A stretch of 64,000 nucleotides of DNA from assembly GCA_963708335.1 (NCBI GenBank), contig OY970205.1, forward strand, positions 1,756,676 through 1,820,675. The letters are read 5' to 3'. A model generated the notes under the pieces. It worked only from the letters and a program-made list of their open reading frames with translations. It had not been told where the DNA came from and made no database searches. This document shows positions 10,737 through 57,110 of the stretch, in pieces. Within the stretch, counting starts at the first letter, position 1. Every line of letters starts with the position of its first letter. Both the position numbers and the translations under genes were made by a program. The stretch is from an uncultured Acidobacteriaceae bacterium. GTDB lineage: Bacteria; Acidobacteriota; Terriglobia; Terriglobales; Acidobacteriaceae.

Positions 10737-10767
10737 GATGCCGCGATGATCCTCCTGTGCCCGCATG

Positions 10768-10807
10768 GCCGGTTCGGCTTTTCGCGACAGGCTGAACCGG
10801 CTTTTTT
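10768..10807 (+). terminator. rho-independent terminator
   Basis: 11-bp stem GCCGGTTCGGC / GCTGAACCGGC (one G-U pair) followed by TTTTTT. Confidence 0.7.
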
Positions 10808-10893
10808 CAGGCGCAGGGCCGAGTGAAAGTAGGACCGCGACCGGGAACTGACGGATCCGGACACTCGGAAGAAGAATTAGGAGGAACGTTGCT

Positions 10894-21940: not shown

Positions 21941-21961
21941 CGCCGGCATTTGCGGTCCAGC

Positions 21962-22588: not shown

Positions 22589-22655
22589 TCACATAGGACC
22601 AAGGGCCAATAGACGAAATTAACTTCCGCGTCTAGTCTCAGATTGTAAGGGGGAG

Positions 22656-23132: not shown

Positions 23133-23281
23133 GTATATGCAGTTCAACGGTGCGTAATCTGACGTGATCGCAAAAGGGACAGCTGACAGCTCCCAGCGTC
23201 AGCATCCAGCGAAACACCGAGATCGTCAGAACGCACTACAACGTAAACGCGAAAACGGGGCGACTGGAGGCTGCAGTGGCT

Positions 23282-24121: not shown

Positions 24122-24141
24122 ATGATTAAGGGAGCAATGCC

Positions 24142-32215: not shown

Positions 32216-32592
32216 TGGAGGCATCGCTTTTTTCCAATCACTGCCGAATCATTGCGTGCCCTTTCGGAAAACTAAAGTACTAGAACTTCTGGATTTCGAA
32301 ACGCAGTATTCCGAAAACAGGGACAGCACGGCCTTCTGTCAGAGGTTAATTTCTCAACACGTGCTACGAAACGGAAAAAGTGCCCAGGCAACTCGTAGTT
32401 CTTACATTGGCTCTTACCAGGCAATGCGCGCGAGAGAAATCGGACGATGAACTAGTCGACGCTTAAATAGGTACATGGGTAACTTTCGACGGGGCGTCCA
32501 AGTGGTTAGCATCAATGGAAAGGCAATTGCTTTACACGTCGTACTCTTCTACCGTTTTTTTTGTTGTAGTGACCACGTAAGGGGCTGGTCAA

Positions 32593-34548: not shown

Positions 34549-34613
34549 AGTCGGGCCTTCCAGAGACGCGGGGGCGACAGCCGGTCAGGTAGACCAGCGA
34601 GAGTCAACAACAC

Positions 34614-38898: not shown

Positions 38899-38907
38899 TT
38901 CGACTCC

Positions 38908-40299
38908 ATGGAAACCCTTATCACTTACGGCGTCGGCGGCCTCATTTGCCTCTTCTTTTTAGTCGGCTATCTGAAGCGTCTGAAGAAGGCCGAAGCCCGC
39001 GCCCGCGAGGCCGCCGAAAAAGGCAAGCTCTTTTCCGAAGGACCGAAGGCCCAGCATCCTCATATCGATTCGAACTATTGCATCGGCTGCGGAACCTGCA
39101 CTAGCGTCTGCCCCGAAGGTGACGTACTGGCGATGATTGCGGGCAAGGCGGTCATTGTGAATGGCCACAAGTGCATCGGTCATGGCCTGTGCGCGGATGC
39201 GTGCCCCGTCGGCGCGATCACGATGGTGATGGCCAGCCCGAGCATGGCCGCCGACATGCCCCATCTCACGCCGGAGTACGAGACCACCATCCCGAACCTT
39301 TTTATTGTCGGCGAACTCGGCGGGCTGGCTCTGATCAAGAACGCCGTGAATCAGGGACGCGACTGCGTTGACACGATTGCCGCGCGCCTCAAGACAAGAT
39401 CTGCCCAGGCCATCCCTGGCGTTTACGACGTCTTAATCGTTGGCGCGGGGCCGGCCGGCATCAGCGCGTCGCTGCGCGCCATAGAAAGCAAACTCAATTA
39501 CATCACGCTCGAGCGCGACGAAGTTGGCGGCACGGTCGCCAAGTATCCGCGACAAAAACTCGTGATGACGAGCCCCGTCGAATTTCCCATGTACGGCAAG
39601 TTCAAGAAGTTGCAGCTTTCCAAAGAACACCTGCTGGCCTTCTGGGACATGATTCTGAACCGCGCTGATTTCAATGTGTCGACCGGCGAGAAGGTTGAGG
39701 ACATCACGAAGGACGACAAGGGCATCTTCACGGTCATCTCCGCGACCAATCAGTATCGTGCGCGGTCGGTCATTCTCGGGCTTGGCCGGGCCGGAGAGCC
39801 ACGCAAGCTCGGCGTTAAAGGCGAGCAACTGCCCAAAGTGATGTACCGCTTGATCGAGGCAGATCACTACATCAACAAAAAGATTCTTGTCGTCGGGGGC
39901 GGCGACAGCGCGGTCGAAGCCGCTCTCGGACTCGCCAACCAGACCGGAAACCAGGTGACGCTCTCGTACCGCAGCGAGCGCTTTAGCCGCATCAAGGAAC
40001 GGAATGCCAATCGCGTCGAAGAGTGCATGCGCTCAGGAAAAGTCCGTGTGTTGTTTAATTCCAATCCGGTTGAATTCAAACCCGAATCAGTATCGATCGA
40101 CGTGAACGGCGCCAGACAAGAAATTCCCAATGATTTTGTCTGGATCTTCGCGGGAGGAAATCCACCCACAGCCTTCCTTAAAAAGATCGGCATAGGTTTC
40201 GGAGCTCGCGACCTGACCCTCGAGGCCAGCAGAGAAGCGAAGCAGGCCAATGAAGACCGCAAGCAATTCGCCCAGGCACATGCTGCGCCGGCTCGCTGA
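38908..40299 (+). CDS. membrane-anchored 2x[4Fe-4S] ferredoxin-domain + FAD/NAD(P)-binding oxidoreductase
   Basis: N-terminal TM helix followed by Lys/Arg-rich sequence. CIGCGTCTSVCP and CIGHGLCADACP. DVLIVGAGPAGISA (FAD). ILVVGGGDSAVEAA (NAD(P)). Confidence 0.75.
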   Translation: METLITYGVGGLICLFFLVGYLKRLKKAEARAREAAEKGKLFSEGPKAQHPHIDSNYCIGCGTCTSVCPEGDVLAMIAGKAVIVNGHKCIGHGLCADACPVGAITMVMASPSMAADMPHLTPEYETTIPNLFIVGELGGLALIKNAVNQGRDCVDTIAARLKTRSAQAIPGVYDVLIVGAGPAGISASLRAIESKLNYITLERDEVGGTVAKYPRQKLVMTSPVEFPMYGKFKKLQLSKEHLLAFWDMILNRADFNVSTGEKVEDITKDDKGIFTVISATNQYRARSVILGLGRAGEPRKLGVKGEQLPKVMYRLIEADHYINKKILVVGGGDSAVEAALGLANQTGNQVTLSYRSERFSRIKERNANRVEECMRSGKVRVLFNSNPVEFKPESVSIDVNGARQEIPNDFVWIFAGGNPPTAFLKKIGIGFGARDLTLEASREAKQANEDRKQFAQAHAAPAR

Positions 40300-40754: not shown

Positions 40755-41501
40755 CTAGTTCTCCGCATAGACCGGCCCGGCCTGGCGAGAGGGTGGATCG
40801 GCGACAGCGCGGATATAGGAAATCAGCGCCTGTACATCAGACTTGCTGAGCGTGTTTCCCCAGGCCGGCATGAGGGCCGATTTGTTGAGGGCCGGACCTC
40901 CATAGCTGATGATCGCGGTGAGGTCGGCGTCGCTGATTTTGTTCAGCGTATCTCCTTCGGTGAAGGGGTGAGGCTTGACCTCGAGGTTGTCATAGTTGGA
41001 GACGCGCTCGACCGTAGACTCGGGATTGTGGCAGCGTTCGCAGTATTGATCGTTGAGTCGGCGTCCGAGGGTTTGCTGATAGCCGAGTGCGATCTCTTCT
41101 ATCTTTAATTCCACCTTTCTGTGGGACTTGTCGATCGTCGAGGCGACGAGTTGGTAACGGCCCGCCATGCCTCCGAGAGATACATTGGTCGTGACTTGGC
41201 CGCTGGAGTCGGTAAGCCCGCTGGCGGGATCGAACGTTACCCCGGGGATCGCTGCGAATTCGACTAGAGCTCCGGATACGGCAGCTCCCTGCTCGTCGTT
41301 TACCTGGACTACGACTGGTTGCGGCAACCAGGCGCCGGTCTGCGCGAACTGTTTTCCGCCGCTGGATTCGATGATCGCGGCGCCGAAAGCCGTGGGCTTG
41401 GGCAGAGGTGCGGACTCGGTCTTACGCGAACAGGAAATAGCCAGCGATGTTGCCAGCACCGCGACAACGAAGGTACCGATTGTATGGAAGTGGCGCGTCA
41501 T
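40755..41501 (-). CDS. lipoprotein with Ig-like domain and C-terminal monohaem cytochrome c domain
   Basis: Lipobox-like LAISC. Single CERCH with a distal Met region (ALMPAWG). The start overlaps the upstream stop (ATGA). Confidence 0.7.
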   Translation of the reverse strand: MTRHFHTIGTFVVAVLATSLAISCSRKTESAPLPKPTAFGAAIIESSGGKQFAQTGAWLPQPVVVQVNDEQGAAVSGALVEFAAIPGVTFDPASGLTDSSGQVTTNVSLGGMAGRYQLVASTIDKSHRKVELKIEEIALGYQQTLGRRLNDQYCERCHNPESTVERVSNYDNLEVKPHPFTEGDTLNKISDADLTAIISYGGPALNKSALMPAWGNTLSKSDVQALISYIRAVADPPSRQAGPVYAEN

Positions 41502-43543
41502 TTCTTGGCGACCTCCGGTTTGGCTCCGCCTTTTTGCGAGATCAGAAATGCGGTCAGAGCGCGCGCATCGTCGTCAGTCATGGCGCGGTTCGGCTCCACG
41601 GTACCCGGGCGCAGAGCCTGCGGATTTTTCATCCACTGGTAGATCCAGGCGGCGGTAAGGCGCGAGCCAACCTGCGTCAGCGTGGGGCCGATGTAGCCCT
41701 TGTCTGTCTTGGTGTCGAGGATGTGGCATCCCTGGCAGGAATACTTGCCATAGAACAGTTGCTTCCCGAGTTCCACCTCGCCTTGGGAGTAGCCGCTCAA
41801 CGGCATGGAGTCGCGATCAACTGACGGATTCTGATACACGGTCATGATGTAGTCGGTGAGTTCGTTGATTTCGGAATCGGTCAGGTTGAAGCGTGGCATG
41901 CGGCGAATCAGCGCCGGACGCAGCGTTCCTGGATTCTTGAAAAACTGCACCAGCCACTCGCGCTGGACGGAACTGCCTTCCCAGGTCAGGTCCGGCGCCA
42001 TGTCGCCACCGCGCCCGTTGATGCGATGGCAACTGAAGCAGGCTAAGTCAGACATCAGTTTCCCGGCTTTGCCGGCAGGCTGGTAATCCGACTCGGGGAC
42101 TGCGGCAACAGCCAGGGATGCTGGCAAAGTAGTCGAACGCTCGTTCAGAGCCAGCAACGCTGTGGTCAGTGCATCGATCTGCGTCGGCGTGAAGCTGTAT
42201 TGCGGCATTCGCAGGTTCGGCGAAAATGCCCGTGGTTCTTTGATTTTGCCCGCAAGGTAATCGGGAAGGGTGTGCGGCATCCCGGGCAGAAAAATGAGCT
42301 GGGTAATCGACTTGCTGCCAATGCGGCTGAGTTCCGGAGCGAAGTTTTCCGGCTTCTTGATTCCGGCGATTTCGTGGCAGGAGGCGCAGCCATAGTCCGA
42401 TACGAGGCGCTTGCCGTGCGCGATCTGCTCGGGAGTAGCCGCATCCAAGTGAACGTTGGCAAGGAGATCGGAATCCGCCTTCGCGAGAAGGAATCCGGAT
42501 AAGGTCGCGACCTGCGGATCGTTGAAGCGATAGTGCGGCATCGCCGTGCCGGGATCGTATACGCGCGGATTTTTCAGCCAGCCTTGCAGCCACTCCGGCT
42601 TCACTTTGCTGCCAATGCGCGTCAGTTCCGGACCAACATCACCACCAACCACGTTCCCCGCCGCATTCTGCACAGCGTGGCACGAGGCGCAAAAGGATTC
42701 ACCATAAAGGCTGGGGCCGGCAGTAGGATCAGCGGCGGGCTTGCCGGAGAGACTGGCAGAGTCTCCCGGCACGGCCGTGCTATTGGCGACCAGGAAAGCG
42801 GAGATGTCGCGCGCATCGTCGTCACTCAACTTGAAATTCGGCATCGTGGCGCTGACCGCATAGGCTCGCGGATCTTTCAGCCACGCGTAAATCCACTCTC
42901 GCGTGGTCTTGTCGGCAATGTGCGAAAGAGAGGGCGCATCGTCACTGGCTTTGAGCGTGCTGCCATCGGGCAGTTTCACCGTATGACAGTTGACACAACC
43001 GTAGCGAGAGAGCAGGTTGCGTCCCTGATTGAGAACAGGAGTTCCTGGCAACGGACCGCGGTGGCATTCCCCACAGGAAGACTCGATGTATTTGGCCGGA
43101 AGAATGGGCTGCTCCCAGGCGAGCGTACTGTTATGCGCTTCAGATACGGTAGTCGCAGCGCCCTGCCCGCGATGACACACGGTGCAGCCGAACTGGTCGA
43201 GCTTGTGCGGAATCACGGGATGAGTGCGGAAGGGTTGGGTAGAAACATCGGTAAGACTGGGTTCCTTCAGTCCGACGTGGCAACTGGTGCAGCGGTCCAC
43301 GACTCCAAGTTCTGGAAGCCAGATCTGCTGAATCCCTGGCTTGAAGTGCCTCTGCAGGGTGTTGGCCTCGCTGCGGTTGCGAATCGTCTTCAGATACCCG
43401 TGCTGATAGTGGCGCCACTCGCTGAAAAAGTTCTTCGCGGGAGCGATCGCCAGCGATGCGAGAAAAATGACGCTGATCACACCGAAGGCGCGCACGCTGT
43501 CGCCGAATAACTTATGCCATATCGATGTGAATTTCTGTCTCAT
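41498..43543 (-). CDS. membrane-anchored octahaem cytochrome c (4 N-terminal haems + 4 class-I-like domains)
   Basis: TM helix FGVISVIFLASLAIAP. 8 CxxCH (CTSCH, CTVCH, CGECH, CVNCH, CASCH x2, CFSCH, CQGCH). ATG 43543 is preferred over GTG 43606, which would overlap the upstream gene by 44 nt. Confidence 0.8.
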   Translation of the reverse strand: MRQKFTSIWHKLFGDSVRAFGVISVIFLASLAIAPAKNFFSEWRHYQHGYLKTIRNRSEANTLQRHFKPGIQQIWLPELGVVDRCTSCHVGLKEPSLTDVSTQPFRTHPVIPHKLDQFGCTVCHRGQGAATTVSEAHNSTLAWEQPILPAKYIESSCGECHRGPLPGTPVLNQGRNLLSRYGCVNCHTVKLPDGSTLKASDDAPSLSHIADKTTREWIYAWLKDPRAYAVSATMPNFKLSDDDARDISAFLVANSTAVPGDSASLSGKPAADPTAGPSLYGESFCASCHAVQNAAGNVVGGDVGPELTRIGSKVKPEWLQGWLKNPRVYDPGTAMPHYRFNDPQVATLSGFLLAKADSDLLANVHLDAATPEQIAHGKRLVSDYGCASCHEIAGIKKPENFAPELSRIGSKSITQLIFLPGMPHTLPDYLAGKIKEPRAFSPNLRMPQYSFTPTQIDALTTALLALNERSTTLPASLAVAAVPESDYQPAGKAGKLMSDLACFSCHRINGRGGDMAPDLTWEGSSVQREWLVQFFKNPGTLRPALIRRMPRFNLTDSEINELTDYIMTVYQNPSVDRDSMPLSGYSQGEVELGKQLFYGKYSCQGCHILDTKTDKGYIGPTLTQVGSRLTAAWIYQWMKNPQALRPGTVEPNRAMTDDDARALTAFLISQKGGAKPEVAKK

Positions 43544-43562
43544 GTCTGCTGCATCCTTGTCC

Positions 43563-44270
43563 TTAAGACCCCTGCCACGGCCATATCCACGACCAACCCG
43601 GACCACGGAAAAATGTGCCGATGGCAGTAAGCACGATGAGTTCGAATAAAAACCAGGTCATCACCCAATACGAAAGCGGTCGCGCGACCAGATACCGCCG
43701 GAAGCCTGAAATCGATTGGGGAGAGCTATACGCTGCAACAAGCATCACCGCGCCCATGATCACAGTCGGAACTAGGGCCGCGTAGACTTTGAAAAAAAGC
43801 AGGAATAGTGAAAGAAGAATCGCCACGCCATAGAAAATGCGCAGGCGGCGCTGGCGGTCTTTCAGGAATAGTCCATCGGCCTCGATATTGACTTTGAAGT
43901 AAGGAATGACAATCAACGCCATGACGACAAGTCCGGGCGCAAGCACGCCCGCAACCACCGGCGGAAAATAATGCAGCATCTCCTGCAGGCCGAGAAAGTA
44001 CCACGGCGCTTTTGCGGGATTCGGCGTGTGCGAAGGGTCAGCCAGGCCTTCGAGCGGAGCGTTAAAGATCAGCGCAATCCAAACCAGGGCGACGGCCAGC
44101 GTCATCACCGCAACCGCCGCGCGGAATAGCACCTCGGGAAAAGTCTGGACCTGGTCTTCGGTCTCGGCCTTCACCTGCGCCGAGGTGCGCCGCGTGACGA
44201 AGACAATCCGTCGCGGAGATTTCTTCGCGTTCGAGTCGATGCCGGCGATGAAGTCCTTGGACTCTGCCAT
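43563..44270 (-). CDS. cytochrome b C-terminal (subunit IV-like) membrane protein
   Basis: PNPAKAPWYFLGLQEMLHYFP (PEWY-type Qo-site motif region). Multiple TM helices. The start overlaps the cytochrome b stop (TAATG). Confidence 0.7.
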   Translation of the reverse strand: MAESKDFIAGIDSNAKKSPRRIVFVTRRTSAQVKAETEDQVQTFPEVLFRAAVAVMTLAVALVWIALIFNAPLEGLADPSHTPNPAKAPWYFLGLQEMLHYFPPVVAGVLAPGLVVMALIVIPYFKVNIEADGLFLKDRQRRLRIFYGVAILLSLFLLFFKVYAALVPTVIMGAVMLVAAYSSPQSISGFRRYLVARPLSYWVMTWFLFELIVLTAIGTFFRGPGWSWIWPWQGS

Positions 44271-45058
44271 TACTGCGCTCCCTTCTCATTTCGTGCGGCA
44301 GCTTCGGCTCGCACGACGGCAGGTTCGCTCGCATGCGAGTACAGTCCACCATCTTTGCGAATCCGCCAGAAATGGATGGCGACGAAGAACAATGCAGCGA
44401 GCGGAAGGATCATGCAGTGCAGCACGTAGAAACGCAGCAGCGCGTTGGCGTTGACCGCGTTTCCACCCAGCAGGAGAAAGTGGATCTTTTCGCCCATCAC
44501 TGGAACCGCCGATGCAATGTTCGATCCCACCGTAATTGCCCAATACGCCAGTTGATCCCAGGGAAGCAGGTAGCCGGTGTAGCTGAGCAGCAGAGTAATG
44601 AGAAGCAGGACAACTCCGATCACCCAATTGAATTCGCGAGGCGGCCGGTATGCGCCGCGGTAGAACACCTTGAACATGTGCGCGAACACCAGAAACACCA
44701 TGGCGTGCGCGGACCAGCGATGCAGGTTGCGTAGAAATAATCCAGAGGAGACTACGAACTGCAGGTCTTTCGTGTCGGCGTAAGCCTGCGGTACCGACGG
44801 GTGATAGTAGAACATCAGCGGAATCCCGGTCGCGACCAGGATGAGAAATGTGCCGAGCGTCAGCGTGCCCAGATACCAGGTCGCGCTGAAACTCAGCATG
44901 CGCGTGCGCACCTTGGTGGAAAACAGATGCAGGAACACATTCTGCTGAATGGCCAGGGAGCGCTTTAGAGTGCTCGAACCGACGCCGCTGCGGAAGATCG
45001 AGCGCCACACTCGTGTTTCGCGCAGATCGTTGAAGTATTGGTCTGCTGTTTTCGCCAT
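44270..45058 (-). CDS. cytochrome b (b6-type N-terminal four-helix haem domain)
   Basis: [15 protein letters not shown] (His-x13-His) and [16 protein letters not shown] (His-x14-His). WFRSIH-like N-terminus. LPWDQLAYW. Confidence 0.85.
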
Positions 45059-45060: not shown

Positions 45061-45558
45061 TTAAACCCTCACGAACTGCATAGGCGGGATGTCGGTGGAA
45101 CGGTCCACCAGCAAGTCTCCGTCGTCATTGAGCCACATGCGCTTCCACGGCAGCGGCTTGGGCGCGGGACCCTCGATTTTGTCGCCTGGTTTGTGATTGC
45201 CCTGCTGCTGAACGTAGAACTTGCTGCCGTGACAGGGGCACGCGATGATGCCCAATTCCGGCTTCCACGCTGTCAGGCAACCTAAATGCGTACACACCGC
45301 GCTGAGCGAGAAATACCCCTCCTGCGAGTGAATAATGAAAATGCCGGTGTTCGCATCAAGCGTGACGGAGTCAAGCGGATAGCGGTCGGGCTTTCCGGCG
45401 TTCACCACCGGAGACGGCTCAAAAAGTACATTCGGCTCGAGGTATTGATACGCGAACGCCGCCGTGCCGGCGGCGGCAATGCTTAACGAGCCGAGCCCGA
45501 GTTTCAGAAAGAATTGACGGCGGTTGACATCGTCAGTCGGTTTTGGTTCCTCTGCCAT
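45061..45558 (-). CDS. Rieske [2Fe-2S] protein with Tat signal
   Basis: [13 protein letters not shown] twin-Arg leader. CTHLGC ... CPCHGS. Confidence 0.9.
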
Positions 45559-45570: not shown

Positions 45571-47526
45571 CTACTTCTGCAATCCCGCGCCGATGGATGC
45601 CACCGAAATCAATCCGGTCGGCTCCGCCGGGATCAGGTTGTATGACTCCATAGTGATGGTGCCCACGGGACAGCGCATGGCGCACAGTCCGCAGCGAATG
45701 CACCGGGTCTCGTCCTTCAGCATGGCCGCGCCCGTAACCACTCCCAGTTCGTCGGCTTTAATTTCATCGAACTCCACGCCGAATAATTCCTGATTGTCGC
45801 GGATGTGCTGCACAGTCTCTGGCTCGAACGAAATCCGATCGAGCGAAACCAGTTCCAGACATTTTTCCGGGCAGACATCTACGCATCCACCGCACAGAAT
45901 GCACATGCTGCCGTCTTCCGGAACGCCTTCAAAAATTGTGTTGACCCAGCAGCGCAGGCAGCGCTGTGCCTCAGCCACGGCGCTGGCCGCGTCATACCCG
46001 ATTTCAACTTCGGTAACGCCTGTGCGCCGCTCGAGCGGAAGCATGGGAACCGGTTGACGGTTGAGGTCGAGGTAGCCGAGTGGCATGGAATGCCGTTTGA
46101 GTAGTTCGACTTCGATTACCGGTTCCGGATGCTTCCCTCCGCGGAGGTATTCATCGATGCCCACCGCCGCACGCTTGCCGTCGCCGACGCTGTCAATAAT
46201 CAGGCGCGGTCCAAACACACAATCGCCTCCGGCGAAAATTCCCGGCGCGGACGTCATCAAAGTCTGGGGATTCACGGCGATAAGACCGCGCGGAGAGAGT
46301 TCCACCTTGTCTTCCGGCGTGAAGAAATCCAACCGCGGCGCCTGCCCGATCGCCATGATGATCGTGTCGCACTCGATCTGCGTCTCGCTGTTTTCGTAAA
46401 ACGCCGGATTGAAGCGCTTGTTCTGGTCAAAGACCCACTTGGTCTTGAGAGTTTCGAGAGCTGTGACCTTGCCGTCTTTGCCCAAAATCCTCTTCGGCCC
46501 TTGCCCCGGAAGCATCTTGATGCCCTCTTCTTCGGCCTCGACGATCTCTTCGAGGGCGGCGGGCATTTCATCGCGCCGCTCCAGGCAGACCAGGTTCACC
46601 TCGCGCGCTCCCATGCGCAAAGCCGAGAGCGAGATGTCAACCATTTCCCTCGTAGCCACGGCGGAGACATTGTCCGCGGAGGGCTCCAATTCCTCCACGC
46701 CGCCGGCATGTTGCCTGACCACTTCGCGTGCCGCCGAGCGCGCCACATCCATGGCAACGTTGCCACCGCCGATCACGATGACTTTTTTCCCGATGGTGAA
46801 TTTGTAGCCCAGGTTCACGTTCAGCAGAAAATCGATGCCCTTGTGAACGCCGTCCAGATCGACTCCGGGAATGCTGAGATCGCGGCTGCGATGAGCGCCC
46901 ACCGCAACCAGTACCGCATCGAATCCCTCGTGTCGCAGATCCGAGATGCTGAAGTCCCGTCCGGCGGCATGATTCAACTTGAGGGTGATGTCCCCGGTTT
47001 CGAGAATCTCGCGGACTTGCGCCTCCACTACGTCGCGCGGCAGGCGATATTCCGGAATCCCCAGATAAAGCATTCCTCCGGCAACCGGAGCTGCTTCGAA
47101 GATCGTCACCGCGTAACCCATCAAGGCGAGATCATGAGCCGCCGAAAGTCCAACCGGGCCACCGCCCACTACCGCAACTTTGTAAGGAAGTTTCTTCTGC
47201 GTGCGTCCTTCATTGACGTTGATGGGACGCTTCGACTCGGGGCCGTACTGCTCGGTAAGAAAGCGTTTCAGCGCTCGGATCGAGATGGGACGGTCGATTT
47301 CGCCGCGGCGGCAGGCGGTCTCACAGGGATGCGCACACACGCGTCCGCAGATACTAGCCAGCGGATTCGGATCACGTGCCAGGCGATAGGCTTCTTCGAA
47401 GCGTCCCTCCGCAATCAGGCCCACGTACCGCCCGGCGTTGGTGTGAGCCGGGCAGGCCATCATGCAGGGAAAGTTTGTGTGCAGCCAGTCCCCGTCAACC
47501 TTCTTGTCTTTGAATCGCTTCAGCAT
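45571..47526 (-). CDS. GltD-like (glutamate synthase small-subunit-type) NAD(P)H/FAD oxidoreductase with N-terminal Fe-S Cys clusters and C-terminal 2x[4Fe-4S] ferredoxin domain
   Basis: FPCMMACPAH ... CGRVCAHPCETAC. VAVVGGGPVGLSAAHDL. VIVIGGGNVAMDVA. CILCGGCVDVCP and CIRCGLCAMRCP. ATG 47526 is preferred over the 47637 start. Confidence 0.8.
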   Translation of the reverse strand: MLKRFKDKKVDGDWLHTNFPCMMACPAHTNAGRYVGLIAEGRFEEAYRLARDPNPLASICGRVCAHPCETACRRGEIDRPISIRALKRFLTEQYGPESKRPINVNEGRTQKKLPYKVAVVGGGPVGLSAAHDLALMGYAVTIFEAAPVAGGMLYLGIPEYRLPRDVVEAQVREILETGDITLKLNHAAGRDFSISDLRHEGFDAVLVAVGAHRSRDLSIPGVDLDGVHKGIDFLLNVNLGYKFTIGKKVIVIGGGNVAMDVARSAAREVVRQHAGGVEELEPSADNVSAVATREMVDISLSALRMGAREVNLVCLERRDEMPAALEEIVEAEEEGIKMLPGQGPKRILGKDGKVTALETLKTKWVFDQNKRFNPAFYENSETQIECDTIIMAIGQAPRLDFFTPEDKVELSPRGLIAVNPQTLMTSAPGIFAGGDCVFGPRLIIDSVGDGKRAAVGIDEYLRGGKHPEPVIEVELLKRHSMPLGYLDLNRQPVPMLPLERRTGVTEVEIGYDAASAVAEAQRCLRCWVNTIFEGVPEDGSMCILCGGCVDVCPEKCLELVSLDRISFEPETVQHIRDNQELFGVEFDEIKADELGVVTGAAMLKDETRCIRCGLCAMRCPVGTITMESYNLIPAEPTGLISVASIGAGLQK

Positions 47527-47653
47527 GCACGGCGTTTCCAATCTCGAAACAGCGGCTGAACGTCCACCTCGGTTTGCAGTACAAGAGCGATACGGATTCG
47601 AGGAGCAGTGCCCCAAGCGCAACTGCTCCCCTGTCACCCCGGACGAGATGCAG

Positions 47654-48235
47654 TTACTTCGTCAGGGTGAAATCCGCTTTCCCGCCGCCGGCTACGGTGA
47701 CGGGCTTCGACTGGTTCTTCGCCCCTTCGTGCCAGACGGTCAGCGTGTAACTTCCGTCGGGAACGTCTTTGATCTTGTAGTTGCCGCTGTCGTCGGTCTC
47801 GGCAAAATAAGGAGTTGGACTGACAATCAGATATCCCGCCATGTCTGGGTGCACATTGCACAGCAGCGGCACAACTCCCGGTTTGTCGAAGGTAAAAGGA
47901 CGCTTTTCACCCTTGGGCCACGTGCCCAGGTTGTGTCCGGCTTTCTTGTCGTTGCCGATCGCCGTCCAAAAAACATTGTGTTGCACCGTGTCGCTATTGA
48001 GGAACTCAACCGTCGTACCCTGTTGCACGACCATGATGTGCGGCACAAACATCAGCCCCTTTTGATCGATCACCGGATGATCTTTGGGTGCGGGAAAAGT
48101 TTTGCCCGCGATCGTGTCCACGTAAACCACGGAGCGGCCCTTCATTCCCGCAACCTTGCCCTCGATGTCGCCGGCGAAAGCCGCGCTGCACAACCCAACG
48201 ATCAAAGCCATCATTACCAATATCTTGCCTTTCAT
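47654..48235 (-). CDS. secreted cupredoxin-like (type-1 copper) protein with C-terminal CarboxypepD_reg-like domain
   Basis: Signal peptide. FVPHIMVVQQGTTVEFLNSDTVQHNV ... LLCNVHPDMAGYLIV. This gives a His ... Cys-x2-His-x2-Met ligand pattern as in amicyanin. The C-terminal GNYKIKDVPDGSYTLTVW is CarboxypepD_reg-like. Confidence 0.65.
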   Translation of the reverse strand: MKGKILVMMALIVGLCSAAFAGDIEGKVAGMKGRSVVYVDTIAGKTFPAPKDHPVIDQKGLMFVPHIMVVQQGTTVEFLNSDTVQHNVFWTAIGNDKKAGHNLGTWPKGEKRPFTFDKPGVVPLLCNVHPDMAGYLIVSPTPYFAETDDSGNYKIKDVPDGSYTLTVWHEGAKNQSKPVTVAGGGKADFTLTK

Positions 48236-48309: not shown

Positions 48310-49695
48310 TCAAAAAATGATCTTTGCATCCAGGTAGAAGGTGTTGTTCGAGCTCGCATTGCGGCCAGAACCGTCGTAGTTGTTTTGGGCTCCATTGAAG
48401 CGTGTGTATCCGGTGTATTGCGCAGCGAGCAGCAGATTCTGCCACGGCCAATAGGTAAAGTTCGCAATATAGCCGCTGCCCCTCGGGTCGCCATTGAAGT
48501 TGCCGGTCACTGCGACATTGGGCGAATACAGAGTCGTGTCGGAAGTGCCGGTCGTGCTGAACCACCCGAATGTTCCGGTGTAGCGGTTGCCATAGTGGTA
48601 TTCGGCGTTGGCCATCACAGTGTTCAAATGATGCGCTCCCAACCCCGCCAATTGCGGATTGCCATTGAAGCTCGCTAACAAGTCGGAATTTTCGCGGATG
48701 TACGTGGCTCGAAAAGACAGCACATCCTTTCTGAACAGTGTCCGATCGATCTGAGTGTCAACTCCCCAATCCGTGTACGAATCCTGCCAGGGGAAACTAG
48801 ACCCGTCGGCTTGCGTAATTGCGTTGGGAGTGGATCGCAGGTGCATTCCATAGGTGCCAACTTCATACTGTGTCTTGGCCGTTAGCTGCTGCCATGCCGC
48901 GCGCCAGTACGGCGCAACGCCGCGAATGTTGGTTCCCCCCCCGGGATTCGGTTGAGGGCTCCCCACGTGCTGGGAACGATAAATCGCGGCATCAAAATAA
49001 AGATGGTTGTTCCACATGGCGTACGCGCCTACACCTCCCACATCCTGCGCCAATCCGCCATTGATGATGGGAGAGGCGTTCGGCGTGGGCGCGAAATCGC
49101 TGGCGACCCAGGGATAGCCCCAGGCCGGGGTGCTGTTCCAAAGGTCCTCGACGGTGGGATTGTTGTTGAAATCCAGACCGTAGACCAATTCCTTGCCGCC
49201 CAGCTTCGTCGTGTTCGCGTAGCGGACATCGGTGTTGTCCATGCTGAAGTGGTCATCCTGCGTGTCGTATGTGACCTGAACGAAACTTCCCACATGGCTG
49301 GTCCAGGCACCTGAAAGGAACAGCGAGATATCCTGGGGAAACTCGACATTGCCGTTCTGGGTCGTCGGCTCCGGCGACTTGATAGAGGTGAAGGAAGCGT
49401 CCAGCATCACTGAAAGCGGCAATGAACCCAAAAGCTCCAGCGCAGCCGTCTTTTTGCTTCCATCAGCCTTGATGACTTTTGTGTCATCCGCCTTGTCCAC
49501 GTAGCCCATCAGCTTGAACCTTCGTCCGGCAGGATTGAGTTCCGGAGGAGTGTAGTGACAGCCGCTGCAGGCTAATCCCGTCTGCCGGGCATAGCTGGGA
49601 ACCGCCTCCACCTTAGGTGGATTCAGGGCGACAACAAACAGCAATGCCAGGATCGAAGCGGACATGACCAGAACAATCGCGACTTTTTTCATCAT
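48310..49695 (-). CDS. fused monohaem cytochrome c / outer-membrane beta-barrel protein (Cyc2-like architecture)
   Basis: Signal peptide. Single CSGCH near the N-terminus (YARQTGLACSGCHYTPPELNPAGRRF). About 400 aa of barrel-like sequence ending ...FYLDAKIIF. Confidence 0.6.
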   Translation of the reverse strand: MMKKVAIVLVMSASILALLFVVALNPPKVEAVPSYARQTGLACSGCHYTPPELNPAGRRFKLMGYVDKADDTKVIKADGSKKTAALELLGSLPLSVMLDASFTSIKSPEPTTQNGNVEFPQDISLFLSGAWTSHVGSFVQVTYDTQDDHFSMDNTDVRYANTTKLGGKELVYGLDFNNNPTVEDLWNSTPAWGYPWVASDFAPTPNASPIINGGLAQDVGGVGAYAMWNNHLYFDAAIYRSQHVGSPQPNPGGGTNIRGVAPYWRAAWQQLTAKTQYEVGTYGMHLRSTPNAITQADGSSFPWQDSYTDWGVDTQIDRTLFRKDVLSFRATYIRENSDLLASFNGNPQLAGLGAHHLNTVMANAEYHYGNRYTGTFGWFSTTGTSDTTLYSPNVAVTGNFNGDPRGSGYIANFTYWPWQNLLLAAQYTGYTRFNGAQNNYDGSGRNASSNNTFYLDAKIIF

Positions 49696-49908
49696 GAATC
49701 TCCTGTTTATTTGCTGACTCTCTGTTCTTCGGGAGAAATGTCAGGAGTCTGCACCGCGTGCCGTTCACGATTCATCGAGCAAACATAGCCATGCGAAAGC
49801 GCATTCGAATCGCCTCCCACGTATAGATTTCGAGAGTTTGGAAAACCCTAGTCTTGATCCAAGCTGAGCGTGATAATACCGGCAGTTGTAGACGTCTCGC
49901 GAGGTGTT

Positions 49909-49939
49909 GAATCACATCCGAATGTGATTTGCATCACAC
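49909..49939. promoter_or_regulatory. composite CRP/FNR-family-like operator, copy 1
   Basis: GAATCACATCCGAATGTGATTTGCATCACAC contains TCACA-N6-TGTGA overlapping a perfect TGTGA-N6-TCACA. Lies 214-244 nt upstream of the 49695 start. Confidence 0.4.
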
Positions 49940-50061: not shown

Positions 50062-50092
50062 GAATCACACCGGAATGTGATTAAGCTCACGC
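50062..50092. promoter_or_regulatory. composite CRP/FNR-family-like operator, copy 2
   Basis: GAATCACACCGGAATGTGATTAAGCTCACGC, identical to copy 1 at 24/31 positions, with TGTGA-N6-TCACG. Lies 153 bp from copy 1. Confidence 0.4.
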
Positions 50093-52042: not shown

Positions 52043-54553
52043 TTACGCTTTCTCTGGGATTGGACACGGCTTTACATTCCAGATTTCTTTCGCGTATTGA
52101 GCGATCGTGCGGTCGCTGGAAAACCTCCCCGACGCCGCTACATTCAAAATGGCCTTGCGCGCCCACTCGTTAGGATCGGCATACAACGCGCACAGCCGAT
52201 CGTCTGCCTCGAGGTACGACTTCAGGTCCGCCAGGTGCATGTAGTGATCGCCTTGCGTCAGCAACATTTCGCGCAAGGGCTCGAAGACGCCCGCCTCATA
52301 TCGGCTGAAATAATCCGAGAAGATCAAGTCCAGTGCTTGACGGGTCTCCGATTCGTGTTCGTAATGCCAGTGCGGGTTGTACCATCCTCGACTGCCGATC
52401 ACTTGCTCCGCCGTCAGCCCGAAGAGGAAAAAGTTTTCTTCGCCTGCCTCCGCGGCCATCTCAATGGTCGCGCCGTCGCGTGTACCGATTGTCAATGCGC
52501 CGTTCATCATGAATTTCATGTTGCTTGTGCCGCTGGCTTCGTAGCCCGCCGTCGAGATCTGGTTCGAAACGTCACTAGCGGGGATCAGATGCTCCGCAAG
52601 CGAAACGCAATACTCGGGCAGGAATATGACTTTCAACCGTCCGCGCACTGCGGGGTCGCTGTCGATGGTCGCAGCCAGGTTGTTAATGAATTTGATAATC
52701 ACTTTGGCGAGCCAATATGCAGGCGCAGCCTTGCCTGCGAAAAGAAACGTCCGTGGGGGCATGTCGAGCCCGGGGTCTTGCCGGAGCCGGTTATAGAGCA
52801 CTACGATCCTGAGTGCATTCAGGAACTGGCGCTTGTACTCGTGGATGCGCTTAACTTGGCAGTCGAAGATAGACTCCGGATCAAGCATCTGCCCCGTCGA
52901 CCAGAGAAGCCAATCGCAGAATTGTCGCTTGGCATCTCGTTTGGCCTTGCGGAAGTCATCGCGGAAGCCACTGTCTTCGGTGAATGCTCTAAGGTTGCCT
53001 AATTCGTTTAAATCACCGATCCAGCCGTCTCCAATGGCATCAGCGATGAGTCCGGAAAGCCCGGGATTGCATAACTGCAACCAGCGCCGGGGTGTCACTC
53101 CGTTGGTCTTGTTGTTGAAACGTTCAGGAAAGATCTCTGCGAGGTCTCTCAGTGTCGTCTGGCGCAACAGGTTCGAGTGAATCTCTGCCACTCCGTTGGT
53201 ACTGTGGGAGCCGACGACCGCCAGGTTGGCCATGCGTACCTTCTTGTCGGGACCATCCTCCACAATGCTCACGCGCTCAATCCGCTTTGTATCGCCTGGG
53301 AACCGCCCACGAACATCGCCCAGAAAGCGGCGATTGATCTCGTTGATGATCTCGAGGTGCCTGGGCAGCATTTCTTCAAACCAGCTGACGGGCCACTTTT
53401 CGAGGGCTTCGGGCAGCAATGTGTGATTCGTATACGCCAGCGTCTTCTGCGTAATGCGCCAAGCCTCGTCCCATCCGAGTCGCACCTGGTCCACCAGAAT
53501 TCGCATGAGTTCTGGAACCGATAGAGCCGGGTGCGTGTCATTCATCTGAATTGCCACTTTGTCGGCAAACAGGCTCCAATCCGAGTTGGAGCGTTGAAAG
53601 CGGCGCACCACATCTGCCAGTGAGCAGGCAACCAGGAAGTACTCCTGCATCAAGCGCAGCGCCTGTCCCATCACTCTGGAATCGTCGGGATAAAGGACGC
53701 GGGTCAGGGTTTCGGCCGAGAGGGTCTGAGTGAACGCTTCTACGAAATCGCCGTGCGAGAACTCTTCAAAGTTGAAGTAGTCGGGCGCAGCTGCGGCCCA
53801 GAGGCGCAGCGTATTGATCGTGGAACCGCCATATCCAATTACGGGGCGATCAAATGGGATACCAATCAGAGTCGACGGACGGCCAGGCACGGGGCGTAGG
53901 CTGCCACCGCTGAGCTCGAATGAGCAGCCCAGGTTGACTTCCACCTTCTCGTTCGGGCGGGCGATCTCCCAGGGGTCGGGAGAACGGAGCCAGTTGTCCG
54001 GCATTTCCCGCTGCCATCCATTTTGGATGGATTGTTTGAATATGCCGTATTCATATCGCAGTCCGTACCCCATGGCGGGTAGCTGCAGCGTGGCGGCGGA
54101 TTCAACGAAGCATGCCGCCAAACGTCCAAGACCGCCGTTGCCCAGGCCTGCATCGGGCTCCTGTTCTAAGATCTCGAGCAGGTTGAGTTTCTTGTCTACG
54201 ACGAACTGGTCTGTGAGTGGAGCGAGCAGAAGATTTGTGACATTATTTGCCAGCGAGCGGCCGATAAGGAACTCCATCGAGAGGTAGTAAAGCCGCTTAG
54301 GATTTCGTTCTTGGTAAGTCTTCTCTGTTAAGAGCCATCGCTGGGAGAGAACGTCGCGCACCGACCGGGCAAGGGCCTCGAAGCGGTCGCGCGCCGTCGC
54401 CGCCGCCAGGTCGACGCCGTTATCGAACAGCAAGTGCGTTTCATATAGTGCTTCATCCGTTCCGGAGAACTGCACTGGACCACATCCGTACTGACTGATG
54501 AGTCTCTCGGTCTCTGGCAACGCCTGCGGCTTTGCTGCGGCGTTAATATTCAT
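52043..54553 (-). CDS. glgP: glycogen/alpha-glucan phosphorylase
   Basis: 836 aa. YYLSMEFLIGRSL, GLGNGGLGRLAAC, and the PLP site EASGTSNMKFMMNGALTIGTRDGA. Confidence 0.95.
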   Translation of the reverse strand: MNINAAAKPQALPETERLISQYGCGPVQFSGTDEALYETHLLFDNGVDLAAATARDRFEALARSVRDVLSQRWLLTEKTYQERNPKRLYYLSMEFLIGRSLANNVTNLLLAPLTDQFVVDKKLNLLEILEQEPDAGLGNGGLGRLAACFVESAATLQLPAMGYGLRYEYGIFKQSIQNGWQREMPDNWLRSPDPWEIARPNEKVEVNLGCSFELSGGSLRPVPGRPSTLIGIPFDRPVIGYGGSTINTLRLWAAAAPDYFNFEEFSHGDFVEAFTQTLSAETLTRVLYPDDSRVMGQALRLMQEYFLVACSLADVVRRFQRSNSDWSLFADKVAIQMNDTHPALSVPELMRILVDQVRLGWDEAWRITQKTLAYTNHTLLPEALEKWPVSWFEEMLPRHLEIINEINRRFLGDVRGRFPGDTKRIERVSIVEDGPDKKVRMANLAVVGSHSTNGVAEIHSNLLRQTTLRDLAEIFPERFNNKTNGVTPRRWLQLCNPGLSGLIADAIGDGWIGDLNELGNLRAFTEDSGFRDDFRKAKRDAKRQFCDWLLWSTGQMLDPESIFDCQVKRIHEYKRQFLNALRIVVLYNRLRQDPGLDMPPRTFLFAGKAAPAYWLAKVIIKFINNLAATIDSDPAVRGRLKVIFLPEYCVSLAEHLIPASDVSNQISTAGYEASGTSNMKFMMNGALTIGTRDGATIEMAAEAGEENFFLFGLTAEQVIGSRGWYNPHWHYEHESETRQALDLIFSDYFSRYEAGVFEPLREMLLTQGDHYMHLADLKSYLEADDRLCALYADPNEWARKAILNVAASGRFSSDRTIAQYAKEIWNVKPCPIPEKA

Positions 54554-54668
54554 GCTCCCATTCCTCCAACGATTTTCTGGATTCCCGAACTCTAATCAAC
54601 TTCCAGCGTGACGCGCATGAGTTCACACTCCTGCGAATATGCGAGCAGTTACGGAACGATGCCTCGCT

Positions 54669-57110
54669 TCATTTCTTGCCGTAAGGCCACTTCCAGCCGC
54701 TGATCTCGGGGCTGTCAATTCCATGCTCGTAAGCATGACGCCGGCATGCAATCTGACAATCCCGGAATACCTCTTTGGCGTGCGCGCCGATTCGTTGCAG
54801 TTTCGGGATGCGATCAATGGCGTCGATGGCGAGACTGAATCGGTCTGTCTGGTTATTGATTGCCAGCTCCATCGGTGTGTTGATGTTCCCCTTTTCCTTG
54901 TAACCCCGTACGTGCAGGTTCCGATGGTTCGTGCGGCGGTAGGCGAGACGATGAATCAACCAGGGATAACCATGGAAGTTGAAGATGATCGGCTTGTCGG
55001 TCGTAAAGAGAGAATCGAAGTCGGCATCCGTTAAACCATGCGGATGCTCTGAGTTCGGTTGCAGCTTGAATAGGTCAACGACATTGACGAAACGGATCTT
55101 GAGATCAGGGAAACGTTCCCTGAGCAGCACAGTTGCGGCCAGCGCTTCCTGGGTTGGGATGTCCCCGGCTGCAGCAAATACAACATCCGGTTCCTGACCG
55201 TCATCATTGCTGGCCCAGTTCCAGATACCAATGCCTTTTGTGCAGTGGGTAATCGCGGCGTCGATGTCTAAGTACTGCACATGCTTCTGCTTGTCCGAGA
55301 CGATTACGTTGATGTAGTTTTCAGAACGCAGGCAGTGATCCGCGACTGAGAGCAAGCAATTGACATCTGGAGGAAGATAGATGCGAGTAACTTCTGCGCT
55401 CTTGTTCAGCACTACGTCGAGGAAACCAGGATCCTGGTGCGTGAAGCCGTTATGATCCTGTCGCCAGACGGTTGACGTAATGAGGAGATTCAGTGATGCG
55501 ATCTTGCGGCGCCAAGATAAATGATTACAGATTGACAACCATTTGGCATGCTGATTGAACATCGAGTCGATCACGTGCACAAAAGCTTCATAAGACGATA
55601 GAAAGCCGTTGCGGCCCGTCAGCAGGTAGCCCTCGAGCATGCCCTCCATCGTGTGCTCGCTCAACATTTCGACAACGCGTCCGTCAGGTGCCAGTTCTGT
55701 TCCATCACGGTCTTCTGGGAGAGTTTCAGCGATCCAGAATTTCTTCGAGACCTCATAAATCGCATCAAGCTTGTTGGACGTGTTCTCGTCTGGCGCGAAA
55801 ACCCGGAAACTCTGCATATTCGACTTCATGACATCGCGCAGGAAGCGTCCTAGTGGCGGGACGTTCTCGACTTCGGTATTTCCCGGGCGGTCGATCTTAA
55901 CGGCATAATTGCGGAACTCTGGCAAGCGCAATTTCTTCCGGAGCTCTGCATTCGCGTGCGGGCTGGCGCTCATGCGGCGCTGCCCTTTCGGAGCAAATGC
56001 GGCAATCTCCGGTCGCACCCTTCCTTTCTCGTCGAAGAGTTCTTCCGGCTTGAACGAGCGCAACCAGGTCTCGAGGAGGCGCAGGTGTTCTGGGTTAGTC
56101 TTCACGTCAGTTAGAGGAACTTGATGCGCACGCCAGAACGCTTCAATGTGATGCCCGTCTATCAGGGCCGGTGCGCTCCATCCCTTTGGCGACCGTAATA
56201 CCACCATCGGCCAGCGTGGCCGGGTCGCGACGCCGCTCTCACGACACTCTTGCTGATGCGCGTGAATCTCGGCAATGCATCGCTCCAGCGTCGCGGCCAT
56301 CGCCTGATGCATGCTGTCGGGCTCAGACCCCTCGACGAAATATGGATTCCAGCCATACCCGCGTAACAGATCCTCCAATTCTTCGTGAGTGATCCGCGCG
56401 AGCAAGGTCGGGTTGTTGATCTTGTATCCATTGAGGTGAAGGATTGGCAGCACGGCCCCATCGCGAATTGGATTCAGAAACTTGCTGATGTGCCATGAGG
56501 TCGCGAGCGGGCCCGTTTCGGCCTCGCCGTCGCCCACCACTGCGGCCACGATTAGCTCGGGATTATCGAACGCGGCTCCGCAAGCGTGCGAGAGGACATA
56601 TCCCAATTCTCCGCCTTCGTGAATGGAACCCGGCGTTTCTGGAGTACAGTGGCTGCCAATACCGCCGGGGAATGAGAACTGCTTGAAGAACTCTCGCAGG
56701 CCTTTCTCATCTTGGCTTTTCTCGGGGTAGATTTCGCTGTACGTGCCTTCCAGATAGATAGGCGCTAACACTCCCGGCGCGCCGTGTCCTGGGCCTGCGA
56801 GAAAAATCATCTCGAGGTCGTCTCTCTTTATAAGGCGACTTAGATGGGTGTAGAGGAAGGCGAGGCCTGGGCTTGAGCCCCAATGGCCGAGCAATCGGCT
56901 CTTGATATGTTCTGATTTCAGGGGTTCCCGCAGCAGGGGATTTGCCTGGAGGTAGATCATTCCTAAAGCCAGGTATTTGCATGCGCGCCAGTAAGCGTCG
57001 ATCCTGCTCAGTTGATCTGGGCTGAGCGGTGCGCCCGCGACGGTTGACCTTGCTTTGCCTTCAGCGCTCAGAGATCCGGCTAATTCTTCAATTCCAGCTA
57101 GAGATGCCAT
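54669..57110 (-). CDS. xfp: xylulose-5-phosphate/fructose-6-phosphate phosphoketolase
   Basis: 813 aa. [42 protein letters not shown]. Confidence 0.93.

Follow-up and report, generated by a model that had tools for sequence, protein, structure and literature searches.

An uncharacterised Cyc2-family cytochrome-porin encoded with a cupredoxin and an anammox-type Rieske/cytochrome b module in a soil acidobacterium

Cyc2, a monohaem cytochrome c fused to an outer-membrane porin, is the main genetic marker from which microbial iron oxidation is inferred in metagenomes. Fe(II) oxidation is taken in the cited papers as the function of the characterised proteins, those of Acidithiobacillus ferrooxidans, Leptospirillum (Cyt572) and Mariprofundus PV-1 (PMC8406198; PMC10654088), each cluster of the family having one functionally characterised member (PMC8406198). 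According to Keffer et al. 2021, a Cyc2 protein has a signal peptide, one CXXCH motif, a 16-strand barrel like those of OprO and OprP, and a length of at least 365 amino acids (aa); the motif AXPXFAR[Q/K][T/Y] preceding CXXCH is stated to be unique to Cyc2, and a PXL motif lies about four residues past the haem site (PMC8406198). In A. ferrooxidans the protein is part of the rus/petI system (Cyc2-rusticyanin-Cyc1-aa3 oxidase; CycA1-SdrA1-bc1), which has been proposed to run in both directions (PMC10654088; PMC7735108). The anammox bacterium Kuenenia stuttgartiensis possesses two complexes, Kustd1480-1485 and Kuste4569-4574, that are unique in bringing together a cytochrome b6, a subunit IV, an NAD(P) oxidoreductase and a cytochrome c with six or eight haems; their function, so far only proposed, would be an electron bifurcation in which quinol reduces both a high-potential acceptor and NAD(P)+ (PMC12954380). 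Within the Acidobacteriota, FeGenie-based surveys have reported cyc2 together with "sulfocyanin" in a metagenome-assembled genome (MAG) of Ca. Koribacter, and have predicted MAGs from mine tailings to belong to iron oxidisers. Here, a Cyc2-like gene (positions 48310 to 49695, minus strand) is described from a 64,000-nucleotide stretch of DNA, hereafter the window, of an uncultured Acidobacteriaceae bacterium (assembly GCA_963708335.1, contig OY970205.1, positions 1,756,676 to 1,820,675 of the forward strand). Its product is an uncharacterised new member of the known Cyc2 family, not a new kind of protein, and we hold with high confidence that it is a genuine cytochrome-porin of that family acting as an outer-membrane electron conduit. 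The interesting part is its conserved operon, in which Cyc2 and a cupredoxin are joined to an anammox-type Rieske/cytochrome b complex, an arrangement not found in the literature searched.

The gene encodes 461 aa including the signal peptide, starts at an ATG located 5 nucleotides (nt) downstream of an AGGAG ribosome-binding site read from the sequence (49700-49704), and ends in a stop codon at 48310-48312. By inspection, its N-terminus, MMKKVAIVLVMSASILALLFVVALNPPKVEA followed by VPS, shows the n, h and c regions of a Sec signal peptide (residues 1-31; 49603-49695), namely an MMKK start with a KK n-region, a hydrophobic core of 20 residues and an A-x-A-like site with predicted cleavage after VEA (VEA/V); residues 2-24 are helical in the AlphaFold model presented below. 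The motif AVPSYARQT (residues 31-39; 49579-49605) fits A-x-P-x-F-A-R-[Q/K]-[T/Y], with a conservative change of F to Y as its sole deviation from the published Cyc2 motif. It is followed by the single c-type haem attachment site, C43-S-G-C46-H47 (49555-49569), and by PEL (P51-E52-L53; 49537-49545), which corresponds to the haem-stabilising PXL motif described in PMC8406198, so that the N-terminal region reads AVPSYARQT-GLA-CSGCH-YTP-PEL. C43 and C46 are the only two Cys residues of the protein, and no further CxxCH occurs. G (9.8%), T (9.1%), A (8.8%), N (7.7%), S (7.4%), Y (5.8%) and W (2.8%) are abundant in the mature part, the end of which is FYLDAKIIF, with a C-terminal Phe. A preliminary description of this DNA had reported a 461-aa open reading frame (ORF) with a cleavable-looking signal peptide, a single haem motif about 40 residues in, and a Gly/Asn/Thr/Tyr/Trp-rich remainder with a terminal Phe, all of which agrees with the present reading, the ORF boundaries being exact.

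The structure predicted for the protein is that of a small cytochrome domain fused to a porin. A first AlphaFold run based on a shallow alignment (75-97% identity) gave a mean predicted local distance difference test (pLDDT) score of 52.8, while an alignment of 141 sequences (40-94% identity) gave a pLDDT of 90.4 and a predicted template modelling (pTM) score of 0.87. The latter model consists of the signal helix, a small N-terminal domain (residues 32-93; 49417-49602) made of short helices at 36-39, 43-46 and 55-62 plus short strands, one short helix carrying the haem site, and 16 strands between residues 94 and 460. The N-terminal domain is also where conservation with Zetaproteobacterial Cyc2 is highest. 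The assignment of a beta-barrel porin domain to residues 94-461 (48313-49416) is based on these strands, on the structural matches and on a profile comparison of the barrel alone (see below). Foldseek searches against the PDB returned only outer-membrane barrels at probability 1.0, including OprP (2o4v), OprO (4rjx, 4rjw), OmpT, OmpF, Omp32 and chitoporin, with TM(query) values of 0.44-0.48 (0.48 for OprP/OprO). OprO and OprP are also the templates reported for Cyc2 PV-1 (PMC8406198). The preliminary description had asked for a barrel of 16-18 strands and had regarded a non-barrel fold as grounds for abandoning the assignment; 16 strands are predicted. The window protein thus shows the sequence and structural features listed for Cyc2 by Keffer et al., i.e., a signal peptide as judged by inspection, one N-terminal CXXCH, the preceding motif, PXL, a sufficient length (461 aa) and a predicted 16-strand barrel.

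Homologues for direct comparison were retrieved with the concatenated tandem mass spectrometry peptides of the biochemically tested Cyc2 PV-1 (Table S1, PMC8406198), among which the haem peptide is QTGAACLSCHFQTFPALNAFGR. This search gave 120 proteins, mostly from Mariprofundaceae and other Zetaproteobacteria, including M. ferrinatatus and M. aestuarium; the PV-1 protein itself was not among the matches, whose top local identity was 60-62%. The Zetaproteobacterial Cyc2 homologues begin ...EAIPAFARQTGAACLSCH..., with a spacing of three residues (x3) equal to that of the window protein, and the AVPSYARQT-type motif was present in 90 of 91 of them at the identical distance from CxxCH. In a phmmer search with the window protein, 118 of the 120 sequences were matched (best E 3e-14 at Z=1e6), and the family profile matched 119 (best E 9e-30), mostly over its first 140 positions. 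BLASTP against the Mariprofundus ferrinatatus protein yielded 29% identity over 119 residues (E 4e-9; criterion <=1e-5); judging from organism, motif and similarity, this comparison protein would be the CP-8 Cyc2 of Fig. S7 of Keffer et al. When the family profile was aligned with a profile of the Zetaproteobacterial Cyc2 proteins (hhalign), a probability of 99.8% and an E of 2.4e-28 were obtained over 376 columns, nearly the whole length. The barrels alone, with the cytochrome domains removed, still aligned with 93.6% probability (E 2e-7, 287 columns), the reversed control giving an E of 0.28. The near-full-length profile homology together with the barrel-only match therefore indicates that the protein is homologous to Cyc2 rather than convergent with it, and a convergent, non-homologous cytochrome-porin, left open when the preliminary description proposed a Cyc2-type protein from architecture, was ruled out on this basis; the Cyc2-type proposal itself gained support from the motif, the phmmer and BLASTP matches, the profile-profile alignment and the predicted fold.

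The family to which the window protein belongs is large and lacks annotation. Pfam and NCBIfam scans of the protein gave zero matches, its public copies are all named "hypothetical protein", and a PDB sequence search with the single sequence returned nothing; with the family profile, the only PDB match was a meaningless one (E 0.1) to the signal-peptide/CxxCH stretch of a multihaem cytochrome, and no solved Cyc2 structure turned up in these PDB sequence searches. More than 6000 clusters at 90% identity were matched among the 8000 candidates scored, the top 120 homologues being 74-97% identical to the query (one of them labelled Candidatus Sulfotelmatobacter). A HMMER search over 1.84 billion representatives at 50% identity found 2479 sequences at E<=1e-3 and 410 at E<=1e-30. 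Exactly one CxxCH was present in every full-length relative (at least 400 aa), both among the close homologues (120/120) and among the 50%-identity representatives (108/108) and profile hits (119/119). Moreover, C43, C46 and H47 were invariant in an alignment of closer relatives (A4) and also in a second alignment (A2), whose members had been selected for having the haem motif. One CxxCH per full-length relative and invariant Cys/His residues argue that the haem motif is not due to chance. The AVPSYARQT-type motif was found in 119 of 120 close homologues, 73 of 108 of the 50%-identity representatives and 118 of 119 profile hits; its fifth position, Y in the window protein, is F in most family members. 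In both alignments L53 was invariant and P51 at least 90% conserved, the N-terminal consensus of the family being A-V-P-S-F-A-R-Q-T-G-x-x-C-x-x-C-H-T-x-F-P-E-L. The preliminary description had considered that the assignment would fall if the Cys/His motif were not conserved in orthologues or if the best homologues were non-haem porins; the motif is invariant and the homologues carry the haem site. In a published similarity network, Cyt572 adjoins a dense cluster of homologues from Acidobacteria and Nitrospira (PMC10654088), which may be the family described here. A second Cyc2-like gene was not found within the 64-kb window.

The Cyc2-like gene is the first of an operon of eight minus-strand genes, with intergenic gaps of -44 to +74 nt for the genes as delimited here. 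Located 74 nt 3' of it, the second gene (47654-48235) encodes a periplasmic type-1 copper cupredoxin with a C-x2-H-x2-M amicyanin-like loop and a C-terminal beta-sandwich resembling CarboxypepD_reg (Pfam Copper-bind, E 2.5e-6, above cut-off; CarboxypepD_reg). Its PDB matches were amicyanin, plastocyanin and the cupredoxin domain of nitrite reductase, and the copper ligands H86/C126/H129/M132 were kept in 58 of 60 syntenic cupredoxins. No match to a rusticyanin model was obtained in the NCBIfam scan, the amicyanin, plastocyanin and halocyanin models matching weakly, far below their cut-offs. The pairing of the Cyc2-like gene with a cupredoxin, likened in the preliminary description to cyc2/rusticyanin, is therefore real and conserved as regards adjacency, but the copper protein is amicyanin/plastocyanin-like by models and PDB matches, and its identification as a rusticyanin was rejected, its presumed role as a blue copper carrier notwithstanding.

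The cupredoxin gene is followed, still in the cluster and before the Rieske gene, by one encoding a cytoplasmic NAD(P)-binding FAD/FeS flavoprotein of 688 aa without a signal peptide, composed of GltD-like and ferredoxin domains (45571-47637; Pfam Pyr_redox_2, Fer4_20, Fer4; NCBIfam PRK12771 NAD(P)-binding protein, 462 bits). The Rieske 2Fe-2S subunit (45061-45558; Pfam Rieske) carries a twin-arginine signal, RRQFFLK, and its best PDB matches were Kuste4569 (9rk4, 7.4e-21) and Kustd1480 (9rk3, 6.3e-15) of Kuenenia; this anammox pair stood ahead of all Rieske proteins of b6f and bc1 complexes, the b6f matches having values of 5e-12 or weaker. Its cluster-binding box II reads CPCHGSKFY, with Ser present, Phe at the usual Tyr position and Tyr one residue later. 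This Ser raises the potential in Rieske proteins of bc1 and b6f complexes, and the residue pattern of the window protein could bear on the potential of its complex and hence on which way electrons flow. The next two genes encode a four-helix cytochrome b6-type subunit of 262 aa (44270-45058; Pfam Cytochrome_B, 3.6e-45; NCBIfam ExtP-like, cytochrome b6) and a subunit IV-like membrane subunit of 235 aa, similar to PetD and ExtQ (43563-44270; Pfam Cytochrom_B_C; NCBIfam ExtQ). They are followed by a gene for a membrane-anchored octahaem cytochrome c of 702 aa (41498-43606; Pfam Cytochrom_C x5, Cytochrome_CBB3, c7/c3-like), in which an N-terminal membrane anchor precedes eight CxxCH motifs arranged as four multihaem-type sites and then four class-I domains. 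The last gene of the operon (40755-41501) encodes a monohaem cytochrome c, possibly a lipoprotein, with one CxxCH and an Ig-like domain (Pfam Cytochrome_CBB3, Big_1). The longest ORFs of the flavoprotein and the octahaem cytochrome begin at GTG; M38 (47526) and M22 (43543), respectively, are likelier starts, since beginning at GTG would extend the N-termini implausibly and would mean an overlap of 44 nt with the gene before. A promoter and terminator scan of the operon gave fewer promoter-like matches and about twice as many terminator-like matches as shuffled sequence, none of them marking the ends of the operon.

In order to evaluate the conservation of this arrangement, one genome per GTDB species was scanned, which gave more than 589 confirmed loci; linkage, defined as location within 10 kb of the Cyc2-like gene, was counted in the best 80 (52-90% identity). 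These 80 loci came nearly all from Terriglobia MAGs of soil and peat, and their labels included Sulfotelmatobacter, Acidobacteriaceae, Terracidiphilus, Granulicella, Bryobacterales and Ca. Acidiferrales. The cupredoxin was linked in 60 loci, cytochrome b in 58, the Rieske protein in 56, the octahaem cytochrome in 51, subunit IV in 49, the last cytochrome c in 48 and the flavoprotein in 47, so that the operon as a whole was linked in approximately 50 of the 80 species-level genomes, nearly all Terriglobia. Two gene orders were observed, the Cyc2-like gene standing either first, as in the window, or last, after the whole module, which argues for selection on the linkage rather than for inheritance of a fixed block from a common ancestor. 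In the related loci, the genes found on either side of the window operon were not conserved.

Other Cyc2 paralogues of Terriglobia were observed next to different carriers. A second paralogue class (L044 8839-13867, L058-L062, L075 and L078) lies in a simpler operon, where the Cyc2-like gene follows one for a Crp/Fnr-type regulator and precedes those for a 112-aa monohaem cytochrome c, a Rieske protein and a cytochrome b with a cytochrome c fused at its C-terminus; neither a cupredoxin nor an NAD(P) flavoprotein is encoded in it. Further classes (L045, L048, L050, L054 and L055, all at about 9400-11400, and L057, L066, L072 and L073) have a 122-aa monohaem cytochrome c gene 5' of the Cyc2-like gene, or a cupredoxin-like protein of about 250 aa on one or both sides. 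The Terriglobia paralogues examined always adjoin a small cytochrome c or a cupredoxin. Outside Terriglobia, two loci were examined from the more distant relatives (40-49% identity), themselves at 42-43% and one of them labelled Proteobacteria (L081 9001-11055 and L083 9001-10988). In both, a gene for a c4-type cytochrome of some 200 aa, made of two class-I domains, begins 15-25 nt downstream of the Cyc2-like gene, which is the classical cyc2-cyc1 pair of iron oxidisers. The general rule is that the outer-membrane cytochrome-porin adjoins a periplasmic one-electron carrier.

Among the described systems, Cyc2 PV-1 and the other Cluster 1 proteins share with the window protein the signal peptide, the N-terminal CXXCH, the AxPxFAR-Q-T motif with its x3 spacing, PXL and the OprO/OprP-like 16-strand barrel (PMC8406198); identity is only about 29% within the first 119 residues and about 19% across the profile alignment. 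The window protein is about 50 residues longer and has a C-terminal Phe where most of the Zetaproteobacterial proteins have Met or Leu; its host is a heterotrophic soil acidobacterium instead of a neutrophilic iron oxidiser, and its partners are a cupredoxin and a Rieske/b complex instead of a c4-type cytochrome. The A. ferrooxidans rus/petI system resembles the window operon in having an outer-membrane Cyc2, a periplasmic blue copper protein, a Rieske/cytochrome b complex and an NAD(P)-binding protein. In the window everything but the oxidase is gathered in a single operon, and the copper protein, which is amicyanin/plastocyanin-like, has an additional beta-sandwich. The place of the bc1 complex and its short-chain dehydrogenase is taken by a b6f-like complex, in which cytochrome b and subunit IV are split, together with an octahaem cytochrome and a GltD-type FeS flavoprotein. 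Cyt572 of Leptospirillum (Cyc2 Cluster 2) is likewise a fused cytochrome-porin, set beside the window protein by description. By contrast, the MtrAB, MtoAB and PioAB conduits and the EET1 and EET2 systems of Acidobacteriota (2026 preprint) have in common with it the role in outer-membrane electron transfer that is proposed here: they are two-protein systems with porins of 20 to 26 strands and deca- or multihaem wires, to which the window protein, with its one haem and 16 strands in one polypeptide chain, is unrelated in sequence.

For the rest of the operon, the closest described counterparts are the anammox complexes. Like them, the window module has a Rieske protein, a four-helix b6, a subunit IV, an octahaem cytochrome replacing cytochrome f and an NAD(P)-binding FeS flavoprotein, i.e., the Rieske/b6 module with flavoprotein and octahaem cytochrome shares the parts list of the anammox NAD(P)-linked complexes. 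Unlike them, it occurs in Terriglobia, without an anammoxosome, and is coupled to Cyc2 and a cupredoxin instead of to a hydroxylamine oxidoreductase (HAO)-like octahaem enzyme. No paper linking Cyc2 or Acidobacteria with anammox-type Rieske/b complexes was found in the literature searched.

Based on these results, a mechanism can be proposed, which as a whole, i.e., a Cyc2-family conduit that oxidises Fe(II), we consider about as probable as all the alternatives together. The protein would be exported by the Sec route and then receive its haem at C43/C46/H47, and the monohaem cytochrome c domain of about 60 residues would remain fused to the 16-strand barrel, which is presumed to reside in the outer membrane. 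The single haem would exchange electrons between a small, pore-accessible, redox-active solute, most likely dissolved or organically complexed iron, and the periplasm, where the co-transcribed type-1 copper protein would be its direct partner. The cupredoxin would act as a hub, joined via the octahaem and monohaem cytochromes c to the Rieske/cytochrome b6 complex. Electrons would then pass from Fe(II) to Cyc2, to the cupredoxin and to a terminal oxidase encoded elsewhere, and the Rieske/b complex would feed the same high-potential copper pool from quinol.

The sequence does not tell which way the electrons flow, and the inward direction at Cyc2, i.e., Fe(II) oxidation, is given an even chance or slightly less. 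The function as an Fe oxidase may be extended to the window protein from the characterised family members, and the single haem, predicted to be buried, suits a soluble donor, which was counted for inward flow. Several observations weigh against a Cyc2 that oxidises Fe(II) in this organism. Terriglobia are known as organoheterotrophs, not as iron oxidisers. The operon contains no terminal oxidase, and the complex that partners Cyc2 there oxidises quinol, which suits outward flow no less than inward flow. At the level of the protein, PXL lies one residue nearer the haem His than in Zetaproteobacterial Cyc2 (H47-YTP-P51-E-L53), and M97, considered as the distal haem ligand, is at least 90% conserved among closer relatives but not family-wide. 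In pairwise comparison with Zetaproteobacterial Cyc2, similarity extends no further than the first ~140 residues, the barrel being visible to profiles only, and the direct comparison covers the homologues retrieved with the PV-1 peptides. Finally, the sequencing runs listed with the gene are DNA runs from soil and wetland metagenomes only, with no RNA-seq run among them.

The best surviving alternative, possible although somewhat doubtful, is that the same conduit works outward, electrons passing from quinol via the Rieske/b6 complex, the octahaem cytochrome, the cytochrome c and the cupredoxin to Cyc2, and from there to extracellular Fe(III), Fe(III)-organic complexes or humic quinones, while in a bifurcation arm the low-potential electron would reduce NAD(P)+ via the flavoprotein, as proposed for the anammox complexes. 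In favour of this direction, it is normal for a Rieske/b complex to act as reductant of a cupredoxin, as in the case of b6f and plastocyanin, and the operon would form a complete chain from quinol to the outer membrane without an oxidase. In the same sense, Fe(III) is a high-potential acceptor in acid soils, and the Rieske protein is closest to Kuste4569 and Kustd1480, whose potentials of >+300 mV fit a quinol-driven NAD(P)H production needing a high-potential sink (PMC12954380). The bc1 complex, rusticyanin and Cyc2 of A. ferrooxidans have been proposed to work outward in anaerobic Fe(III) respiration (PMC7735108), but that case rests on omics, and no characterised Cyc2 has been biochemically shown to reduce Fe(III). 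Some Acidobacteria are reported to reduce Fe(III). The lone haem in a predicted narrow 16-strand barrel, however, cannot touch solid Fe(III) oxides, which would restrict such a conduit to soluble or chelated acceptors. A separate multihaem/porin cluster located nearby, at 30-37 kb of the window, would also suit outward transfer, yet its adjacency is not conserved, even in the 90%-identical locus L001.

A Cyc2-family conduit with a partner other than iron, such as Mn(II), humic quinones or another small redox solute, or one serving redox sensing or balancing rather than respiration, is improbable. The size of the family (2479 representatives) and its presence in many lineages without known iron cycling speak for it, as do the discussion of Cyc2 homologues for Mn(II)-oxidising Nitrospirota in PMC9040806 and the argument of a 2026 preprint that the electron-transfer systems of peat Acidobacteriota may target organic acceptors. 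On the other hand, all tested members of the family act on iron, and the motifs of the cytochrome domain are the same as those of the iron oxidases. An ordinary diffusion porin or nutrient channel without electron transfer, its CxxCH being incidental or binding haem for uptake, is very improbable: the barrel does resemble general and phosphate-selective porins and the N-terminus is not recognised by Pfam or NCBIfam cytochrome models, but thousands of sequences retain the CxxCH, ARQT before it and PxL after it while their barrels vary, the family to which the protein is homologous has been proven biochemically to bind haem, and in the loci examined the genes adjoin those of periplasmic one-electron carriers.

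A more far-reaching proposal, which we regard as unlikely but worth stating, is that in Terriglobia Cyc2 and its dedicated cupredoxin are hard-wired to an electron-bifurcating, anammox-type Rieske/b6 complex with its own NAD(P) reductase, extracellular iron, whose potential is high in acid soils and peat, serving as the high-potential sink or, in reverse, as a co-donor, and NAD(P)H being produced directly from quinol. If so, some of the most abundant soil bacteria would possess a respiratory branch that connects extracellular iron with their pyridine nucleotides independently of complex I. The operon would in addition provide another system besides the anammox bacteria, and perhaps a more tractable one, for the proposed quinol-to-NAD(P)H bifurcation, and gives an obvious candidate for the missing high-potential partner of the anammox-type complex. 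The Terriglobia clade of Cyc2 is unannotated and without a Pfam or NCBIfam model, yet it is present in hundreds of species-level genomes of a group that is dominant in acidic soils and peat. If the Cyc2-family conduit is active, organoheterotrophic Terriglobia would take a direct part in the redox cycling of iron in soil, a process on which carbon stabilisation, phosphate availability and the greenhouse-gas balance of peat depend.

In addition to the operon itself, the palindrome TCACA-N6-TGTGA (16 base pairs (bp); extended form AATCACA-N6-TGTGATT) was found by sequence scan at about 220 bp (49912-49927) and about 370 bp (50065-50080) 5' of the operon, two of the three exact copies in the window being 5' of it. 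With at most one mismatch, the palindrome was present at -450 to -30 of the Cyc2-like gene in 29 of 78 related loci, 33-fold denser than in the rest of these loci. The pair is probably the operator of a regulator; its half-sites are in the opposite order with respect to the CRP consensus.

The multihaem/porin cluster mentioned above (30182-40299, plus strand) resembles an extracellular electron-transfer system. It comprises two multihaem cytochromes (30182-32215, 23 CxxCH; 32593-34548, 25 CxxCH), an 836-aa AMIN-domain protein that may be an outer-membrane barrel (34614-37124), a 275-aa protein without a Pfam match, a membrane protein with a weak, sub-threshold match to DUF4405 and a 463-aa FeS/FAD oxidoreductase, and is similar to the porin-scaffold-cytochrome clusters of peat Acidobacteriota described in the 2026 preprint. 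It was considered as a part of the Cyc2 system and rejected as such, the adjacency being absent even in L001. Upstream of the operon, a glycogen phosphorylase gene (836 aa) adjoins a phosphoketolase gene (813 aa) on the minus strand (52043-57110), and the stretch between this pair and the operon encodes two small proteins predicted to be lipoproteins, of which one has a Gly-zipper and the other DUF4136. On the plus strand, the region 20303-25308 encodes a histidine kinase with ETR1_N ethylene-receptor-like and PAS domains, two LuxR-type response regulators and a second PAS histidine kinase; the ETR1_N domain binds copper in plant receptors.

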